A DNA stretch of 11,394 nucleotides from a virus. Taxonomy: Duplodnaviria > Heunggongvirae > Uroviricota > Caudoviricetes. The notes below the pieces were generated by a model. It saw nothing but the letters and a program-made list of their open reading frames with translations, was not told the origin of the DNA and searched no databases. This document shows positions 1 through 11,394 of the stretch, in pieces. Made by a program: the position numbers and the translations under genes. How positions within the stretch are numbered: position 1 is the first letter of the stretch; each line of letters opens with the position of its first letter. The stretch covers positions 1 to 11,394 of IMG/VR virus record IMGVR_UViG_2687453449_000005. One strand, 5' to 3'.

Positions 1-90
1 TCACTCTGCCAGATGGCGCAATGCCATCTGGTATCACTTAAAGGTATTAAAAACAACTTTTTGTCTTTTTACCTTCCCGTTTCGCTCAAA
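1..90. other. Host chromosomal flank of the lambda attB site (B' arm side of attR)
   Basis: Reverse complement of 60-97 reads ...CAAATTAGTATAAAAAAGC preceded by GAGCGAAACGGGAAGGTAAAAAGACAAAAAG, which matches the E. coli attB/attR B' arm as I recall it (CTTGAGCGAAACGGGAAGG...). Recall-based; not verifiable here. Confidence 0.7.
9..31. repeat. Inverted repeat hairpin CCAGATGGC-GCAAT-GCCATCTGG in host flank
   Basis: Perfect 9-bp arms with a 5-nt loop seen directly. No adjacent T-run on either strand, so a terminator role is not supported; function unknown. Confidence 0.4.
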
Positions 91-105
91 TTAGTATAAA
101 AAAGC
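91..105. other. attR core: 15-bp lambda common core (TTAGTATAAAAAAGC = reverse complement of GCTTTTTTATACTAA)
   Basis: Exact 15-bp core string, flanked on one side by host-like sequence and on the other by lambda P-arm-like sequence. Confidence 0.85.
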
Positions 106-250
106 TGAACGAGAAACGTAAAATGATATAAATATCAATATATTAAATTAGATTTTGCATAAAAAACAGACTACAAAATACTGTAAAACACAACATATGC
201 AGTCACTATGAATCAACTACTTAGATGATATTAGTGACCTGTAACAGAGC
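106..250. promoter_or_regulatory. Lambda attP P arm (Int arm-type / IHF / Xis / Fis binding region), here part of attR
   Basis: TGAACGAGAAACGTAAAATGATATAAATATCAATATATTAAATTAGATTTTGCATAAAAAACAGACTAC...CAGTCACTATGAATCAACTACTTAGATG.TATTAGTGACCTGTAACAG matches the lambda P arm as recalled, in reverse-complement orientation. Confidence 0.8.
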
Positions 251-292
251 ATTAGCGCAAGGTGATTTTTTGTCCTCTTGCGCTAATTTTTT
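251..292 (+). terminator. sib / tI-like hairpin with T-run (lambda int retroregulation and terminator element)
   Basis: ATTAGCGCAAGG ... CCTCTTGCGCTAAT inverted repeat followed by TTTTTT, about 150-190 bp from the core on the P-arm side, where lambda sib/tI lies. Confidence 0.65.
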
Positions 293-783
293 GTCAACTC
301 ACTGGGTTAGTTGAATTTACAACCATGCTCAGTATCTCGATAAGCGCAGGGAGATGATGCAGTGGTGGGCGGACTGGCTTGATGAAAGTGTGCTGTAATC
401 CTCATATCCAACCTAAGAGATATGCACAATTTTGTGAATAAGATATTGAGAATTAGCAAAAGTTTTATTTTGCGTATCATCAATTCAGAATACAAAGTCA
501 CATGCTAATGTTCTGCATTGGTATCTTTTGCTTATCCATGTCTACATTATCGCCAAAATAATAGGTTTTGTCTATCAATTATTTGAATTACTTCCATGAA
601 ATTATAACGCACTTGTAATTTTTGATTATTTTTACCTCTCAAGTGTTTTGTTTCTTCTATCTCTTTGTATTTTTAGCGAAAGTATGCCATATTGCATTCT
701 AATATAACGTGGCGTTGTTTCTGTTTAATGATTTAAATAGTTCAACATAATATTTGCTAACAAATTATATCCAAGCAAATCAT

Positions 784-1966: not shown

Positions 1967-3304
1967 TTAATCTATTTCGTAAGTGACAGTGATTATCACT
2001 TCTGCATTATTACCCAAAACATTTTGATATATATTCATATTACCTGATAATGTAGTTGCTCCAGTAAGAGTTATATAACTACTATTTGCATCAACCCTTG
2101 GAAGTAAAGCGGTAACTGCTGTTGTTAAATTATTATAGTAGCCTGTACTTCCAACATATGCAGCTTTATTGCTTGATACATATGGTAACCCTCCAATTCT
2201 GAAACCATCTCCTGACCCAATTAAAGTTATACCAAGGTGACATGTTGCCGTTATGATATTGCCACTCCTGACATAATTTCCTTTCTGCTGATAATATGTG
2301 GCATTACCACCTACAGTCGGAATCCAAACTCCAGTTTCTATATCACCACATGACCAGTCTTCTGCTGTTGTTAGTTTTCCAGTAACAATAAATTTACTTC
2401 CACCACCAGAATTATAAGGAACAAAAATTGGATTTATTCTTGCATAAGTGTTACCGGTCTGCTCATTAAGATCATTTCTATCAATAAGAACTTGACCATT
2501 TTCGAAGTTTGAAATCTGGCAGTCTGTTACACTCCAGTCTCTTAACTTCACATCAGCATCCATGACACCAATAAGCTTACCAGCATTACCAATTTTTTCT
2601 TTATGCATATTTACATACACATTTCTTACCGTAACAGACTGAGGGAACAGATAATTAGCAGGATTAGTTTTATCACTTAAAACAGATATTACCCAAGGTC
2701 TGTATTGAGTACTTACTTCACAATAAAATCCATCAATAAGCGTTCCAGATGCCGCTGGCCCAAGTAGTATTCCACCTGTAGAGTGATGCGCACTACCTCC
2801 AATTACTCTCCCCTTAACGCAGTTAATATAGGCAAAATATCCTAAATCTTGATTGTCATAGGCTGACATAGCACAGTCTCTAACTGTTACTCGAGAATTT
2901 CCTCCGTCATAAGCTGAGCCATCAGTTTTCTTACCAACTATTGATATAAAGTTACCAATAGCAACTCGACTATAAAAAGTTTTTTTATAACACCCCTCAA
3001 TTAAAATATCCCAGTTTTCAAACTGAGCATATATATCATAAGAGCTGGCATTCCCATAATCTATGAAATCACAATATCTTATTTTCGGCGTATAAACGGC
3101 ACTTTTTATCTTTATACCACCTAATGCTCTCTCCCCACCTGTGAATCTAATGCCAGTAACGGTGTAATCGCCTTGATAGAAATTATCTGCGGTAGGATTA
3201 TTTTCGTCAGAATCATCACCCAATATAATAGCAAATTCACTCCCTGAATAATTAATTGTCGCCCCCTTATTTGAATATATAGTTACAGGTCTTATAAACT
3301 CCAA
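1967..3304 (-). CDS. Tailspike/tail-fibre-like receptor-binding protein, putative right-handed beta-helix glycanase domain; probably 5'-truncated remnant
   Basis: 445-aa ORF rich in G/N/S/T/Y/V with repeated short beta-strand-like segments (e.g. VTVRDCAMSAYDNQDLGYFAYINCVKGRVIGGSAHHSTGGILLG), typical of pectate-lyase-fold tailspikes. The ORF begins at TTG directly after an in-frame TGA; first in-frame ATG is far inside; no head-binding N-terminal domain. Confidence 0.5.
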   Translation of the reverse strand: MEFIRPVTIYSNKGATINYSGSEFAIILGDDSDENNPTADNFYQGDYTVTGIRFTGGERALGGIKIKSAVYTPKIRYCDFIDYGNASSYDIYAQFENWDILIEGCYKKTFYSRVAIGNFISIVGKKTDGSAYDGGNSRVTVRDCAMSAYDNQDLGYFAYINCVKGRVIGGSAHHSTGGILLGPAASGTLIDGFYCEVSTQYRPWVISVLSDKTNPANYLFPQSVTVRNVYVNMHKEKIGNAGKLIGVMDADVKLRDWSVTDCQISNFENGQVLIDRNDLNEQTGNTYARINPIFVPYNSGGGSKFIVTGKLTTAEDWSCGDIETGVWIPTVGGNATYYQQKGNYVRSGNIITATCHLGITLIGSGDGFRIGGLPYVSSNKAAYVGSTGYYNNLTTAVTALLPRVDANSSYITLTGATTLSGNMNIYQNVLGNNAEVIITVTYEID

Positions 3305-3696: not shown

Positions 3697-4722
3697 ATGA
3701 CTAGTACCAATAACATAACAAGAAAAAAAATGGATGGAGTAACAATCTTAAGATTTATAGCTGCTTTTTATGTGTTTATTTTTCACATTAACATGAGAGT
3801 CCCCGTTAATTTTGGAGAGCTTATTAATAAAACCATTAGCAATGGCGTCATTGGCATGAGTATTTTCTTCATGCTTTCTGGTTTTGTTTTGACTTATAAT
3901 TACTATGGTTCCTTGTCAAACAATTACTTCAGGAAGCGAATAGCAAGAATATTTCCAGCCTATTTATTTTGTGGGCTTTTAACCCTCCCATTTTTGTTAT
4001 CCAGCGATGCAAGCTTTTTAAAAATGATTGCAAGCATATTCTTGTTTGTTACTGGAATGCAATCATGGATTTATCAGACCTTCGATTTTTGGAATTTTAG
4101 CGGTACCTGGTCAATATCAGTGGAATTGTTTTTTTATGCCCTGTTTCCATTTTTGATAAAAAACATCAACAAAAACAATGTAATTTATGTTTTACTTTTT
4201 TCATATTTATCTTCAGCATTATTAATCCCATTATCTGATATAATTCAGGGACCTGTAGTTTGGTCCGTATATTACGCAACTCCAATATACAGGTTACCAG
4301 AATTTGTGGTGGGCGTCTGTATCGCAATACTTTTTTTAAATGGCTATCGTGTTAACCATTATACATGGCTATTAAGCATTTTATTATTTCTGTATGCTAC
4401 CACCCAGCAAAACAATAACTCCATGGGGGTGAACTATCTCACAATTCCTGCGATATCAATTATGTTATTGCACCTGGCAAAAATCAACATCAAAAACAAT
4501 ATTGCAAACAGAGCGATCATTTACTTTGGAGATATAAGTTATTCGTTTTATTTGATGCAATTACCTATATTATATTACCTGGATCATAATAAAAACTCAT
4601 TTATTCTTAACTATGGTCTTTTTAGCTGGCTTGTACTTTTTGTTATTAATACTGCAATGGCATCATTATCTTATCACTTTCTGGAGAAGAACGATAAAAT
4701 CAGAAAAATAATTACATCCTGA
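3697..4722 (+). CDS. Acyltransferase family 3 (AT3) integral membrane O-acyltransferase, second divergent copy
   Basis: ATG start; ILRFIAAFYVFIFH (R...H), GVIGMSIFFMLSGF, and RKRIARIFPAY motifs. Shares family motifs with the 784..1929 protein but is otherwise clearly divergent. Alternative start at the internal M (MDGVTIL...). Confidence 0.8.
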   Translation: MTSTNNITRKKMDGVTILRFIAAFYVFIFHINMRVPVNFGELINKTISNGVIGMSIFFMLSGFVLTYNYYGSLSNNYFRKRIARIFPAYLFCGLLTLPFLLSSDASFLKMIASIFLFVTGMQSWIYQTFDFWNFSGTWSISVELFFYALFPFLIKNINKNNVIYVLLFSYLSSALLIPLSDIIQGPVVWSVYYATPIYRLPEFVVGVCIAILFLNGYRVNHYTWLLSILLFLYATTQQNNNSMGVNYLTIPAISIMLLHLAKINIKNNIANRAIIYFGDISYSFYLMQLPILYYLDHNKNSFILNYGLFSWLVLFVINTAMASLSYHFLEKNDKIRKIITS

Positions 4723-5666: not shown

Positions 5667-6428
5667 TTATTGGGATAGCTTCTCCACGCTGTAGGTACGC
5701 AAATGCGCTTTGTAGACCAGCTGCGCCGCGCCGACAGTAGCGCTGTCGAACGCGGTAAGACGATCCCAGATACGCTCTACAACCGACATTCCCCATTCGT
5801 TCTCGGTCATCTTCTGCTGAAATGGCAGCGTGACGCCATCAAAGCGAATCAGTCGACTGTGATGAATGCGCCAGGCAGGAATTCCCGTTGCTGTGGTCAC
5901 CACATCGTAAAACTCAGGTTTACCCAGGTCCGGCCCCATATCTTTAATGCGGCGGGTCAGTACCGGGTCAATCATCCAGCGGTCGAGCGGGAGAATCCCC
6001 TTAAACTTGCCCTTACCGATGGTTTCGGGTCGCAGCGGGGTCATTGGTGCCTGCCCCTCAATCATGATGAAACCCACCGCGCCGCCGTAGAGGCGCGACC
6101 ATTTCAGCACGTCATTCAGCGCATCCCAGATTTGCAACTCATCCAGTTGTGATTCGAGAATGCCACGATCTTTTGCATCAATTTCCGAAGTGATGCGAAT
6201 GCCTTTGCGGGTCATATCATCTGGGATAGCATCGACCGCTTCGCCGATGATCCAGGACGAACGATAGGACCATTCCACCAGCATGCGGTTACGACTGGTG
6301 AAATTAGCCCGGTAGGTGGATGCTGAGTGCTGGTTAGGTGTCTGCATCCCTACGCGGGCAATAAAATTCTCATAACCATCAGCTGTGGCCTGCGCAGTTC
6401 GCCGCAGGGCTTGTTTGTTTCGTGCCAT
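5667..6428 (-). pseudogene. Probable portal protein, N-terminal fragment (253 aa), truncated by deletion
   Basis: Start ATG overlaps the terminase large subunit stop (TGATG), the usual terL-portal coupling. At 253 aa it is far shorter than any portal and is followed after 22 bp by a tail-fibre C-terminal ORF. Portal assignment is by position and general character only. Confidence 0.45.
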
Positions 6429-8050
6429 CAGGCCTGTCTCCCTAGCAGCTCCCAGATGTTCAGGGCTGAATTCATTGGGGCATAGTTGATCATCACCGAG
6501 TCGGCAAGGTTTGGCGATCGGGTTCCATCAGGCTGTTTATCAATAACGATTTTTCCCACACCATTAATGGAATAGGTCGGCTGCGAAAGCTCGATGATGA
6601 GTTTATCTTTGAGTGCCATGCTACTGCTGATTGAGATGATTTCGTCCGGGTTGTAAGCCATACCTTCAACCACGGCGCGCCAGGTATTCTGAAAAAGTTT
6701 ACGTAACCGCCACCAGCTCTGGGCTTTGGCGTTAGCGAAGAAGTCCTTGTTCAGACGTGCGGCTTGCCCGTTGTCCCCGCGAACAGCTTCATCATCTGGA
6801 TCAAATACCGCGCCACTACCTCGAAACGGTGTGGCGAGTATTGACGGTCGACGCGCAACGTTACGCAGTTCGTTGATAGCGCGTGCATCGCCGCGAACGC
6901 CAGCGCCCAGCCCGTCCTCGTCAAAGCGAAACTCTTCGAGGTTGTCCTGTTCGCAAAAACCGAAAACCTTCTCGACGGACTGATAAATGTCACTGCCCAC
7001 ACCGGACCATTCCCGCACATTTTCCAGGAGGAAGCCATGACGGGTGGAAAATGCATTTTTGTCCCTGCCTTCGTCGGCGACATCCATCGCGCCAAGTCGT
7101 TTGCCTGTTGGCTGGATACCCAGTTTGATATGTGCATCAACGGCAGCCTGTACCCATTCGGATGGAATCAGGACGCCTTCCGCTGATGCGCTGTAGTTCA
7201 GATCAAGTTCCTGTGCCACCACCACCGGATTATCGATTTTCTCGCATTCCCTGCGATACCACTCTTCATCCTTGCGAGGATCATCCCGCCAGTGGAATGT
7301 GAATACCGGTATCTTCCCGCCATGACGCTTCTGAGCGAACGGGTTCGCCATGCCGTTAACTGAACTCAGGTCAATACGGCAACGCGTCGTTTGTGACAAC
7401 GCCGCATCAATCAGCAGAGGACGCTGAAGGAATGCAGCCTCATCAACCAGATAAAGCGTGGTACGGTCACCACGACCAATATTATCGCCAGCCTCGCCTT
7501 TGATAACGGCACCAGTTTCAGGAAACTCAACACGCATATATGGCGCGTGCTTCTTCTCGCTCCACGAACCGCGAAACTCTACAGGTAGTGTTTCCACGAA
7601 CTTGCGCGCCTTCCAGAACAATGCTTTCGGGTCACCGGTGCTGTCGACGTATTCCTCTTTACGGGAGCCGAAACCGATAACCATTTCTTTGTTGAAGAGA
7701 CAAAGCGAGCAGGCCAGTCCGATCGCGGTCCAACTGAGCCCCATTTCACGGGATTTTTCGGTAATACCATTCTCCCTATTGCCCCAGCGTTCCATAATCC
7801 AGTGGATCCACTCCTCCTGCTTAGGGAAGAGTAAAAACGGAATGGTCACCGGCAGGCCATAATCAATATTACGCGGGTCCGTTGTCATGCCCCAGTCGAT
7901 GATGAACTGAGCCGGGTTGGTTCGGTAAAACTGTTTTAGTGCTGGCAATATTTCAGGGTTCTGGCGAATGCGCTGTAAGCGTTCCATCCGCCATTCAAAA
8001 ACCATCTGGTAATCAGGATTTTTAAAATCGAAGGGGAATGGTAACGGCAT
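6428..8050 (-). CDS. Phage terminase large subunit (ATPase + nuclease)
   Basis: 540 aa; Walker-B-like [10 protein letters not shown]-terminal nuclease-domain motifs ([22 protein letters not shown]) of the kind seen in P22/Sf6-type terminases; ATG start 2 nt after the terS stop. Confidence 0.85.
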
Positions 8051-8052
8051 AC

Positions 8053-8559
8053 TTAGCCCATCATTTTTCTATACGCCTCTGCAGCCTGCTCCGGCGTTAA
8101 GTTGGTAATTTCTGTTCTGACTGGTCCTCCATCAGCGCCAGTCACTTCATTTTTGACGTTGTCTTTAAACGCCTGAACAGAAACATGACGCCCAAGCAAC
8201 TCAAGGTTTTTAACCTTATCAGGCCATTTGATTTTCTTCAGAAGTGCGGCGCTATCTGCGGATACCATCTCCATGACATCCATTCCTGATAGCGTTGTGC
8301 GCCATACCTTAGGCCAGTCTTTAATGGGTTTTAGATCACCGTTTTGCAGGAGAATGTCGAGCACATCCATCTGGTCGATTTCAATAAGGCGATTAAGTAC
8401 ATATTCTGCATTAATACCAACAAGATCATTGCGTTGCGCTTTCAGTTCAGCGATTCTGAATTGTATGTCAGGTTTTGACAGGTTTTCGGATGCGGTACGG
8501 TTAGCTGTCTTTGCGCTGTACCCCGCCCGAATATCGGCAATGAATAACAATCCTCGCAC
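8053..8559 (-). pseudogene. Terminase small subunit, N-terminally truncated at a recombination junction
   Basis: ...IRAGYSAKTANRTASENLSKPDI matches the conserved terS block, but the preceding residues do not resemble a terS N-terminus; the only start is GTG, an in-frame TAA lies 5 codons upstream, and no SD is present. Confidence 0.6.
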
Positions 8560-8581
8560 TCGCGGGGATTTCTTTTATCTG

Positions 8582-8607
8582 AACTCGCTACGGCGAGTTT
8601 TGTTTTA
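8582..8607 (+). terminator. Intrinsic terminator candidate (AACTCGC-TACG-GCGAGTT then TTGTTTT)
   Basis: 7-bp stem plus T-rich tract seen directly; lies in the junction/intergenic zone upstream of the 55-aa ORF. Confidence 0.3.
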
Positions 8608-8619
8608 TGGAGATGATAA

Positions 8620-8787
8620 ATGCACTTCCGAGTCACAGGTGAATGGAATGGAGAACCATTCAACAGAGTTATCGAAGCGGAGAACATCAACGACTGCTAC
8701 GACCACTGGATGATATGGGCGCAGATAGCACATGCAGACATAACCAATATTCGAATTGAAGAACTGAAAGAACACCAATCCGCCTGA
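8620..8787 (+). CDS. Small hypothetical protein (55 aa), lambda orf55-like, upstream of xis
   Basis: ATG at 8620 with GGAG 8 nt upstream; open frame to TGA at 8785-8787 (MHFRVTGEWNGEPFNRVIEAENINDCYDHWMIWAQIAHADITNIRIEELKEHQSA). Same position and size as the 55-codon ORF next to xis in lambda. Absent from the ORF track, presumably by length cutoff. Confidence 0.6.
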   Translation: MHFRVTGEWNGEPFNRVIEAENINDCYDHWMIWAQIAHADITNIRIEELKEHQSA

Positions 8788-8799
8788 TGGCGGTTTTTT
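8780..8799 (+). terminator. Small hairpin + T6 (CCGCC-TGAT-GGCGG-TTTTTT) directly after the 55-aa ORF
   Basis: 5-bp GC stem, 4-nt loop containing the ORF stop codon, and six T; seen directly. Not a named lambda terminator that I can recall. Confidence 0.3.
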
Positions 8800-8800
8800 C

Positions 8801-8840
8801 TTGCGTGTAATTGCGGAGACTTTGCGATGTACTTGACACT
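8801..8840 (+). promoter_or_regulatory. pI-type cII-dependent int promoter (TTGC-N6-TTGC box)
   Basis: TTGCGTGTAATTGC at 8801-8814 is a cII recognition repeat just upstream of and overlapping the xis start, as for lambda pI, whose transcript starts inside xis. Confidence 0.5.
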
Positions 8841-9045
8841 TCAGGAGTGGAACGCTCGCCAGCGACGCCCAAGAAGCCTTGAAACAGTTCGTCGATGGGT
8901 GCGCGAATGCAGGATATTCCCTCCTCCGGTTAAGGATGGAAGAGAATATCTGTTCCACGAATCAGCGGTAAAGGTTGACTTAAATCGACCAGTAACAGGT
9001 AGCCTTTTGAAGAGGATCAGAAATGGGAAGAAGGCGAAGTCATGA
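8827..9045 (+). CDS. xis: Excisionase Xis (lambda Xis, 72 aa)
   Basis: MYLTLQEWNARQRRPRSLETVRRWVRECRIFPPPVKDGREYLFHESAVKVDLNRPVTGSLLKRIRNGKKAKS matches lambda Xis as recalled; GGAG SD 9 nt upstream; 23-nt overlap with int as in lambda. Confidence 0.95.
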   Translation: MYLTLQEWNARQRRPRSLETVRRWVRECRIFPPPVKDGREYLFHESAVKVDLNRPVTGSLLKRIRNGKKAKS

Positions 9046-10093
9046 GCGCCGGGATTTACCCCCTAACCTTTATATAAGAAACAATGGATATTACTGCTAC
9101 AGGGACCCAAGGACGGGTAAAGAGTTTGGATTAGGCAGAGACAGGCGAATCGCAATCACTGAAGCCATACAGGCCAACATTGAGTTATTTTCAGGACACA
9201 AACACAAGCCTCTGACAGCGAGAATCAACAGTGATAATTCCGTTACGCTACATTCATGGCTTGATCGCTACGAAAAAATCCTGGCCAGCAGAGGAATCAA
9301 GCAGAAGACACTCATAAATTACATGAGCAAAATTAAAGCAATAAGGAGGGGGCTGCCTGATGCTCCACTTGAAGACATCACCACAAAAGAAATTGCGGCA
9401 ATGCTCAATGGATACATAGACGAGGGCAAGGCGGCGTCAGCCAAGTTAATCAGATCAACACTGAGCGATGCATTCCGAGAGGCAATAGCTGAAGGCCATA
9501 TAACAACAAACCCTGTCGCTGCCACTCGCGCAGCAAAATCAGAGGTAAGGAGATCAAGACTTACGGCTGACGAATACCTGAAAATTTATCAAGCAGCAGA
9601 ATCATCACCATGTTGGCTCAGACTTGCAATGGAACTGGCTGTTGTTACCGGGCAACGAGTTGGTGATTTATGCGAAATGAAGTGGTCTGATATCGTAGAT
9701 GGATATCTTTATGTCGAGCAAAGCAAAACAGGCGTAAAAATTGCCATCCCAACAACATTGCATGTTGATGCTCTCGGGATATCAATGAAGGAAACACTTG
9801 ATAAATGCAAAGAGATTCTTGGCGGAGAAACCATAATTGCATCTACTCGTCGTGAACCGCTTTCATCCGGCACAGTATCAAGGTATTTTATGCGCGCACG
9901 AAAAGCATCAGGTCTTTCCTTCGAAGGGGATCCGCCTACCTTTCACGAGTTGCGCAGTTTGTCTGCAAGACTCTATGAGAAGCAGATAAGCGATAAGTTT
10001 GCTCAACATCTTCTCGGGCATAAGTCGGACACCATGGCATCACAGTATCGTGATGACAGAGGCAGGGAGTGGGACAAAATTGAAATCAAATAA
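9023..10093 (+). CDS. int: Tyrosine integrase (lambda Int, 356 aa)
   Basis: MGRRRSHERRDLPPNLYIRNNGYYCYRDPRTGKEFGLGRDRRIAITEAIQ...SQYRDDRGREWDKIEIK matches lambda Int essentially throughout; catalytic residues at lambda numbering R212, K235, H308, R311, H333, Y342 are all present. Confidence 0.97.
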   Translation: MGRRRSHERRDLPPNLYIRNNGYYCYRDPRTGKEFGLGRDRRIAITEAIQANIELFSGHKHKPLTARINSDNSVTLHSWLDRYEKILASRGIKQKTLINYMSKIKAIRRGLPDAPLEDITTKEIAAMLNGYIDEGKAASAKLIRSTLSDAFREAIAEGHITTNPVAATRAAKSEVRRSRLTADEYLKIYQAAESSPCWLRLAMELAVVTGQRVGDLCEMKWSDIVDGYLYVEQSKTGVKIAIPTTLHVDALGISMKETLDKCKEILGGETIIASTRREPLSSGTVSRYFMRARKASGLSFEGDPPTFHELRSLSARLYEKQISDKFAQHLLGHKSDTMASQYRDDRGREWDKIEIK

Positions 10094-10172
10094 TGATTTT
10101 ATTTTGACTGATAGTGACCTGTTCGTTGCAACAAATTGATAAGCAATGCTTTTTTATAATGCCAACTTAGTA
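10094..10172. other. attL remnant: lambda P' arm plus first 6 bp of the core (TTAGTA), interrupted by IS10
   Basis: AATGATTTTATTTTGACTGATAGTGACCTGTTCGTTGCAACAAATTGATAAGCAATGCTTTTTTATAATGCCAAC + TTAGTA matches the lambda P' arm up to the core, then breaks into an IS10 end. Confidence 0.85.
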
Positions 10173-11394
10173 CTGAGAGATCCCCTCATAATTTCCCCAA
10201 AGCGTAACCATGTGTGAATAGATTTTGAGTAAGCAGGGTTGCAGCCACGAGTGAGTCTTCCCTTGTTATTGTGTAGCCAGAATGCCGCAAAACTTCCATG
10301 CCTAAGCGAACTGTTGAGAGTACGTTTCGATTTCTGACTGTGTTAGCCTGGAAGTGCTTGTCCCAACCTTGTTTCTGAGCATGAACGCCCGCAAGCCAAC
10401 ATGTTAGTTGAAGCATCAGGGCGATTAGCAGCATGATATCAAAACGCTCTGAGCTGCTCGTTCGGCTATGGCGTAGGCCTAGTCCGTAGGCAGGACTTTT
10501 CAAGTCTCGGAAGGTTTCTTCAATCTGCATTCGCTTCGAATAGATATTAACAAGTTGTTTGGGTGTTCGAATTTCAACAGGTAAGTTAGTTGCTAGAATC
10601 CATGGCTCCTTTGCCGACGCTGAGTAGATTTTAGGTGACGGGTGGTGACAATGAGTCCGTGTCGAGCGCTGATTTTTTCGGCCTTTAGAGCGAGATTTAT
10701 ACAATAGAATTTGGCATGAGATTGGATTGCTTTTAGTCAGCCTCTTATAGCCTAAAGTCTTTGAGTGACTAGATGACATATCATGTAAGTTGCTGATAGG
10801 TTTCCAGTTTTCCGCTCCTAGGTCTGCATATTGTACTTTTCCTCTTACTCGACTTAACCAGTACCAACCCAGCTTCTCAACGGATTTATACCATGGCACT
10901 TTAAAGCCAGCATCACTGACAATGAGCGGTGTGGTGTTACTCGGTAGAATGCTCGCAAGGTCGGCTAGAAATTGGTCATGAGCTTTCTTTGAACATTGCT
11001 CTGAAAGCGGGAACGCTTTCTCATAAAGAGTAACAGAACGACCGTGTAGTGCGACTGAAGCTCGCAATACCATAAGTCGTTTTTGCTCACGGATATCAGA
11101 CCAGTCAACAAGTACAATGGGCATCGTATTGCCCGAACAGATAAAGCTAGCATGCCAACGGTATACAGCGAGTCGCTCTTTGTGGAGGTGACGATTACCT
11201 AACAATCGGTCGATTCGTTTGATGTTATGTTTTGTTCTCGCTTTGGTTGGCAGGTTACGGCCAAGTTCGGTAAGAGTGAGAGTTTTACAGTCAAGTAATG
11301 CGTGGCAAGCCAACGTTAAGCTGTTGAGTCGTTTTAAGTGTAATTCGGGGCAGAATTGGTAAAGAGAGTCGTGTAAAATATCGAGTTCGCACAT
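10173..11394 (-). mobile_element. IS10 (IS4 family), partial in window: inside end at 10173, element continues about 107 bp beyond the window
   Basis: Terminal CTGAGAGATCCCCTCATAATTTCCCCAAAGCGTAACC matches the IS10 inside end as recalled. Transposase stop lies 14-16 bp inside this end and the 402-codon ORF starts at the last window base, fitting the 1329-bp IS10 layout. Confidence 0.93.
10186..11394 (-). CDS. IS10 transposase (DDE, IS4 family), complete 402 aa
   Basis: MCELDILHDSLYQFCPELHLKRLNSLTLACHALLDCKTLTLTELGRN... with DAGF and YSKRMQIEETFRDLK (YREK signature) motifs; matches Tn10/IS10 transposase as recalled. Confidence 0.95.
   Translation of the reverse strand: MCELDILHDSLYQFCPELHLKRLNSLTLACHALLDCKTLTLTELGRNLPTKARTKHNIKRIDRLLGNRHLHKERLAVYRWHASFICSGNTMPIVLVDWSDIREQKRLMVLRASVALHGRSVTLYEKAFPLSEQCSKKAHDQFLADLASILPSNTTPLIVSDAGFKVPWYKSVEKLGWYWLSRVRGKVQYADLGAENWKPISNLHDMSSSHSKTLGYKRLTKSNPISCQILLYKSRSKGRKNQRSTRTHCHHPSPKIYSASAKEPWILATNLPVEIRTPKQLVNIYSKRMQIEETFRDLKSPAYGLGLRHSRTSSSERFDIMLLIALMLQLTCWLAGVHAQKQGWDKHFQANTVRNRNVLSTVRLGMEVLRHSGYTITREDSLVAATLLTQNLFTHGYALGKL

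Follow-up and report, generated by a model that had tools for sequence, protein, structure and literature searches.

A 2,014-bp deletion scar with 5-bp microhomology truncates the small-terminase gene of prophage λB in Escherichia coli RS76

The λB prophage of strain RS76

The window, by which we mean the whole 11,394-nucleotide stretch of DNA analysed here, corresponds to positions 3397239–3408632 of CP013048.1, the chromosome of Escherichia coli RS76, an isolate from chicken (poultry). RS76 has been described as an avian pathogenic E. coli (O7:HNT, ST93; PMC4732331). The window starts just past ybhB, crosses a defective prophage and ends with the int gene of that prophage and a copy of IS10, beyond which lies ybhC. 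The order in RS76, ybhC (pectinesterase), IS10, int ... acyltransferase, ybhB (PBP) and bioA, is that of REL606, and the prophage occupies the lambda attachment site in the ybhC/ybhB interval. In REL606, BL21 and the B lineage generally, attB is occupied by λB, a prophage of 12.1 kb (PMC4395058). RS76 and REL606 are 100% identical over 10,172 bp of the window. Judged by its site, gene content and nucleotide identity, the prophage in the window is λB, the known defective lambdoid cryptic prophage. With the λB of REL606 and BL21 it shares the insertion site, two acyltransferase genes, tail-fibre remnants, a portal fragment, terL, terS, orf55, xis and int. Only two differences separate the RS76 and REL606 copies, namely a 2,014-bp deletion and IS10. 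Unlike the λB of E. coli B, the RS76 copy lacks positions 9635–11648 of the REL606 locus (L001), which leaves terS beheaded and six small genes or gene fragments gone, and it carries IS10 in the attL core.

The features around the deletion are the following (window coordinates).

5667–6428, minus strand: portal gene fragment of 253 aa, matching Pfam Phage_portal_3 over positions 6–207 of 357; a pseudogene in REL606
6428–8050, minus strand: terL, large terminase of 540 aa (phrog_2); an intact ORF directly downstream of the terS remnant
8053–8533, minus strand: terS remnant, codons 25–183 and the stop of a 183-aa small terminase (Terminase_2), delimited by Pfam, translation and alignment
8529–8533, strand not applicable: deletion junction, a single kept copy of the 5-bp GAATA where the two REL606 matches overlap
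8534–8559, minus strand: fortuitous 5' extension of the terS ORF, codons 1–9 (VRGLLFIAD), the reverse complement of the ASCH end and the tL4 hairpin
8529–8547, plus strand: tail of the ASCH-domain gene (phrog_625), its last 19 nt with the TAA stop at 8545–8547; the rest of the gene is gone
8549–8577, plus strand: tL4 terminator of the lambdoid early-left operon, a 9-bp stem and then a T run, from terminator scan and fold
8581–8610, plus strand: second hairpin resembling a terminator, shortly before orf55 and conserved in lambda, HK022 and REL606
8620–8787, plus strand: orf55, lambda-family 55-aa ORF (phrog_676), intact, with GGAG at 8609–8612; ORF55 in the phage 434 record
8827–9045, plus strand: xis, lambda-type excisionase (Pfam Exc, E = 3.9e-41), 1 aa off lambda Xis
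9023–10093, plus strand: int, lambda-type integrase of 356 aa, differing from lambda Int at 3 aa

On the packaging side, the terL DNA is 98.7% identical to terL of Escherichia phage vB_EcoM-606R2. The fragment at 5667–6428 carries the PGAP label 'anti-CBASS protein Acb1 family' pseudogene in REL606; its profile match indicates a truncated portal gene rather than a member of the Acb1 family. Since the portal gene was already truncated, the packaging module was dead before the RS76 deletion occurred. On the other side, the orf55–xis–int block was untouched by the deletion and is intact.

The junction and the direction of the event

Local BLAST against the REL606 locus resolves the prophage into two blocks. 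Window 1–8533 matches L001 1102–9634 and window 8529–10172 matches L001 11644–13287, both at 100% identity without a single mismatch, and in REL606 the same two blocks stand 2,014 bp further apart. Any of the five bases GAATA at 8529–8533 can be taken as the breakpoint; in REL606 this motif stands at L001 9630–9634 and again at 11644–11648, while RS76 has one copy of it, the pattern of a microhomology deletion. The segment missing from RS76, L001 9635–11648, measures 2,014 bp and has 47% G+C. The junction in RS76 reads CCCGAATATCGGC, and the sequence diagnostic of the join is GCTGTACCCCGCCCGAATATCGGCAATGAATAACAATCC. When 200,000 breakpoint pairs were picked at random within the same sequence, only 0.58% of them (~0.006) gave microhomology of at least 5 bp, so that the 5-bp microhomology is unlikely to be due to chance. 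No longer or structured repeat beyond GAATA was found at the breakpoints; one inverted repeat of 18 nt and 83% identity flanks the region and is probably a chance occurrence. To the left and to the right of the join, more than 1.6 kb of sequence contains neither Ns nor mismatches.

The first-pass annotation, made from the sequence of the window, had placed a recombination join within about 8530–8610 and had proposed that alignment would fix the breakpoint to the base and that microhomology should be looked for. The join does lie at the left edge of that interval, and the alignment made it base-precise, with the 5 bp of microhomology described above. The same annotation had pointed to lambda-like sequence close by on the other strand, which agrees with homology to lambda proper beginning at 8544 and with orf55 and its GGAG a little further on. 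Homology to HK022 and to Stx1a-type lambdoid phages begins at 8529, and the right side of the join matches lambda, HK022 and 434 at 97–98%. The right breakpoint falls 16 nt upstream of tL4, which carries the label t-L4 or tL4 in the records of phage 434 (M60848) and HK022 (X51962) and was mapped to the window by match offsets. In the REL606 annotation the ASCH coding sequence occupies L001 11378–11662.

Several lines of evidence bear on which of the two arrangements is ancestral. HK022 is 95% identical to REL606 over L001 11377–11918, uninterrupted across the right breakpoint at 11644–11648, and its match in RS76 ends abruptly at window 8529. The listed relatives of TerS in its 90% cluster have 183 aa (two have 195 aa) and keep the N-terminus, some of them on approximately 1,000 contigs each, while the 168-aa form occurs on a single contig in public collections (CP013048.1). 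A tblastn search with full-length TerS returned 385 phage records; 30 of these were taken from all parts of the ranking, and in every one the alignment begins at query residue 1–6. The most distant matches cover only the N-terminal 50–90 residues, so the deletion cut into the most conserved part of TerS. The lost residues also belong to the stretch that aligns to the solved DNA-binding domain of the small terminase of Bacillus phage SF6. Finally, the undeleted form is present in 43 of 5,426 complete E. coli genomes (2.4-kb query over the whole interval, coverage at least 80%), and the deleted form, with the two flanks joined, in 0 of the 5,426, a collection without NZ_CP013048.1, the RefSeq record of RS76. 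A 39-mer across the join was likewise absent from the genome_contigs and metagenome_contigs collections in an exact scan. Because the terS N-terminus is conserved, the HK022 homology is continuous, a single repeat copy is kept and the distribution stands at 43 to 0, the event is, on these comparisons, a deletion in RS76. The reverse, an insertion in E. coli B, was rejected on the same points.

From terS the deletion took the first, promoter-proximal 71 nt, with the start codon, the ribosome-binding site and residues 1–24. It also took a divergent 182-aa hypothetical gene (phrog_30882) and a 61-aa hypothetical gene (phrog_12811), an Rz/Rz1-like spanin remnant (lysC), a DUF551 fragment, a DUF4752 gene and the ASCH gene save for its last 19 nt (gene list from the REL606 annotation, checked with PHROG and Pfam). 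Within the missing segment, at L001 10916/10919, the Rz/Rz1 remnant on the minus strand abuts the DUF551 fragment on the plus strand. A fuller relative of the prophage in strain CUVET16-465 retains Q, holin, endolysin, lysC, the 61-aa gene, the divergent gene, terS, terL and portal, the order in which a native late operon has them. Since this relative keeps the genes from Q to lysC upstream of terS, λB in REL606 already carries an older junction, which had eliminated the recombination, immunity, replication, antitermination (Q) and most of the lysis genes. The RS76 deletion wiped out this older junction. By the same comparison it is a small step that came later, and one resident prophage underwent two or more deletions in succession.

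The first-pass annotation had described a recombination junction between a lambda-like int–xis block and a terminase module. A true deletion join that beheads terS is indeed there, but both of its sides belong to one resident prophage and not to two elements. The further claim, that the join had taken out all that lies between int and the packaging genes of an intact lambdoid phage, does not survive the comparison with REL606: only 2,014 bp went, from a prophage that was already gutted. The central point of that reading thus holds and only the size of the event was misjudged; it is partly supported.

The terS remnant

The minus-strand ORF at 8053–8559 has 168 codons and a GTG start, and its product (ALQ60056.1) is annotated 'terminase' in CP013048.1. 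Against Pfam Terminase_2 it scores 87.5 bits (gathering cut-off 26.1), starting at residue 8 and covering profile positions 21–139 of 141 only, whereas the full-length REL606 TerS, a protein of 183 aa that starts MALTDKQEMFCREYLIDLNATQAAIRAGYS, covers positions 1–139. In the alignment with the 183-aa relatives, identity begins at codon 10 (IRAGYSAKTA) and codons 1–9 are unrelated, much as the first-pass annotation had it when it let the terS match begin at about codon 8. Along with the first 24 residues (MALTDKQEMFCREYLIDLNATQAA), the remnant has lost its ribosome-binding site and start codon. Through the deletion, the body of terS is now fused to the tL4 region that precedes orf55, read as its reverse complement.

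The expression signals expected of a working gene were looked for. Upstream of the GTG the frame reads a stop codon followed by KKSPR-V, with the stop 5 codons before the GTG, and the 18 nt preceding it (TAAAAGAAATCCCCGCGA) hold no Shine-Dalgarno motif; both points had been read correctly from the sequence at the outset. Neither was a Shine-Dalgarno motif at workable spacing found before the internal in-frame starts of the ORF. The fold places the GTG (8559–8557) at the loop–stem boundary of the antisense hairpin, and a promoter scan of 8000–9100 found no sigma-70-like promoter on either strand. A functional small terminase would be expected to have a conventional start and a ribosome-binding site in a late operon, as well as a complete N-terminal helix-turn-helix; here the upstream late genes have been deleted and residues 1–24 are missing. 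Because the GTG lies inside a hairpin and no Shine-Dalgarno motif precedes it, the terS ORF is regarded as a pseudogene, probably a silent one. The 168-codon frame and its GTG are an accident of the fusion, most likely neither transcribed nor translated, and the annotation of ALQ60056.1 should become that of a 5'-truncated pseudogene.

The nature of the lost part can be judged from the SF6 small terminase. Residues 3–55 of the full-length REL606 TerS align to the SF6 N-terminal DNA-binding domain (3ZQP, 2CMP, 4ZC3) with E = 3.8e-11. On this alignment, together with general knowledge of the fold, the lost part of the N-terminal helix-turn-helix DNA-binding domain should comprise helix 1 and roughly half of helix 2. 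The ancestral 183-aa protein resembles the small terminases of the SF6 / SPP1 G1P type in its N-terminal domain and in covering the full Pfam model; unlike these, the RS76 ORF lacks residues 1–24 and a conventional start, as befits a gene remnant.

A separate, mosaic boundary lies within terS itself, between L001 9154–9336 and 9337–9705 (window 8053–8235 and 8236–8533). With Escherichia phages of the vB_EcoM-606R2 group, an identity of 98.7% extends over terL and the 3' third of terS, where the match ends, and the 5' part of terS resembles the terS of SEN34 and of Cronobacter ES2-type phages at 80–86%.

Origin of the scar and the alternatives

The reading that we favour, with a probability of roughly 87%, is that the RS76 lineage carries a 2,014-bp deletion scar in λB, formed via GAATA, that the terS remnant is a pseudogene and that the whole is a case of ordinary prophage decay, which would have been neutral for the strain. 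RecA-independent deletions between short direct repeats are classical in E. coli, and a kept single copy of the direct repeat is their classical signature. The RS76 case is like them in having the repeat at both parental ends and once in the product, in its kilobase scale, and in a join without transposon end or site-specific core; it differs in that the repeat is only 5 bp long, in that no strong palindrome was found to flank it, and in that its mechanism is a proposed one. The repeat signature suggests that the deletion joined the two GAATA direct repeats by RecA-independent, short-homology illegitimate recombination and left one copy behind. The route may have been replication slippage (copy choice) or the microhomology-guided rejoining of a break, two possibilities that the sequence can't separate.

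Two other mechanisms were considered and set aside. A deletion promoted by the adjacent IS10 does not fit, as the end of the element at 10173 lies 1,640 bp from the join and its 9-bp target duplication is intact. Site-specific recombination by Int/Xis does not fit either, as the join has no att core (GCTTTTTTATACTAA); the att cores lie near window 91–105 and at 10155–10172.

The alternative that keeps most weight, though an improbable one, is that the join arose in assembly or gap closure, so that RS76 in truth has an undeleted, REL606-type chromosome here and the missing 2,014 bp dropped out either in silico or through a template switch during the gap-closing PCR. The genome was obtained from Illumina paired-end and mate-pair libraries with 150-bp reads and assembled with SPAdes, BL21(DE3) served as the reference for ordering the contigs, and the gaps were filled by PCR with Sanger sequencing (PMC4732331), a procedure that would leave room for such an error. 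Parts of the ASCH, DUF4752, DUF551 and Rz1 sequences are near-identical in many lambdoid prophages, repeats of the kind that break short-read contigs, and the junction is known from one record only. The left breakpoint, however, falls in the N-terminal part of terS, which has few phage DNA matches and where no repeat is suggested. The join is, moreover, clean, with its mismatch-free flanks and the single retained copy of the direct repeat, and an overlap of 5 bp does not lead a De Bruijn assembler to join contigs.

Considerably less probable is a single-step mosaic join, as implied by the first-pass annotation, in which a lambda-like int–xis block and a foreign terminase module recombined in one event and the entire early region was lost at once. 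The two sides of the join do differ in their affinities, the right one being close to lambda, HK022 and 434 and the left one to the packaging genes of vB_EcoM-606R2 and the SEN34 type. Yet REL606 and 42 other complete genomes hold both sides at 100% identity with 2,014 bp more between them, and this intervening segment contains the older Rz/Rz1–DUF551 junction as well as genes continuous with each side.

It is more doubtful still that the truncated TerS, as an oligomerization core that lacks the DNA-binding domain, is expressed and plays a satellite-like or interfering role, diverting or poisoning the packaging of related phages. Residues 25–183 and the downstream terL are intact ORFs, and some phage satellites do carry TerS-like proteins. 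The remnant, however, has no promoter and no Shine-Dalgarno motif, and its start codon lies inside a hairpin; the element has terL and a broken portal gene, and its annotated genes show no replication or primase module; the relatives with the same element retain full-length terS; and the variant occurs in one strain only, which gives no sign of selection. A phage satellite (PICI or P4-like), a possibility that the first-pass annotation had itself raised and rejected, was likewise set aside: terL and a portal fragment are present and neither the ORF list nor the REL606 annotation shows a replication module, while for satellite-like packaging terS also lacks expression signals. Equally far-fetched is the idea that a headless TerS, made by low antisense read-through, would act as a dominant-negative inhibitor of the terminases of SEN34- or vB_EcoM-606R2-type phages and so serve in prophage defence; nothing in the data supports it.

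The deletion in λB matters little beyond annotation, but it provides a clean, base-resolved example of stepwise prophage decay. In RS76 the prophage lost a further 2 kb and independently gained IS10, and its flanks are still 100% those of E. coli B. The case might also be of use for marking the lineage of RS76-like poultry isolates of ST93.

The ends of the prophage deserve brief mention. Window 87–296, a stretch of 210 bp, is 97.6% identical to lambda 27534–27742 (att core and int-distal arm) and represents the prophage's other attachment site, adjoining ybhB. At the int end, IS10 occupies window 10173–11394 (1,329 bp in L002, the locus taken from CP013048.1), and its inside end, CTGAGAGATCCCC, adjoins the prophage. 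Its target site, window 10164–10172, lies in the lambda att core beside int, and the 9-bp duplication is AACTTAGTA (L001 13279–13287). IS10 splits the P' arm of attL from the core, and the prophage should as a result be locked in place. The int–IS10 junction was absent from the complete E. coli genomes in RefSeq. Towards ybhB, two intact acyltransferase-3 genes (754–1929 and 3697–4722, plus strand) flank an ORF of 445 aa (1967–3304, minus strand) that has no PHROG or Pfam match. These genes lie at the tail-fibre end of the dead prophage and are 100% conserved between RS76 and REL606; they look like surviving cargo, possibly for the acylation of surface polysaccharides.
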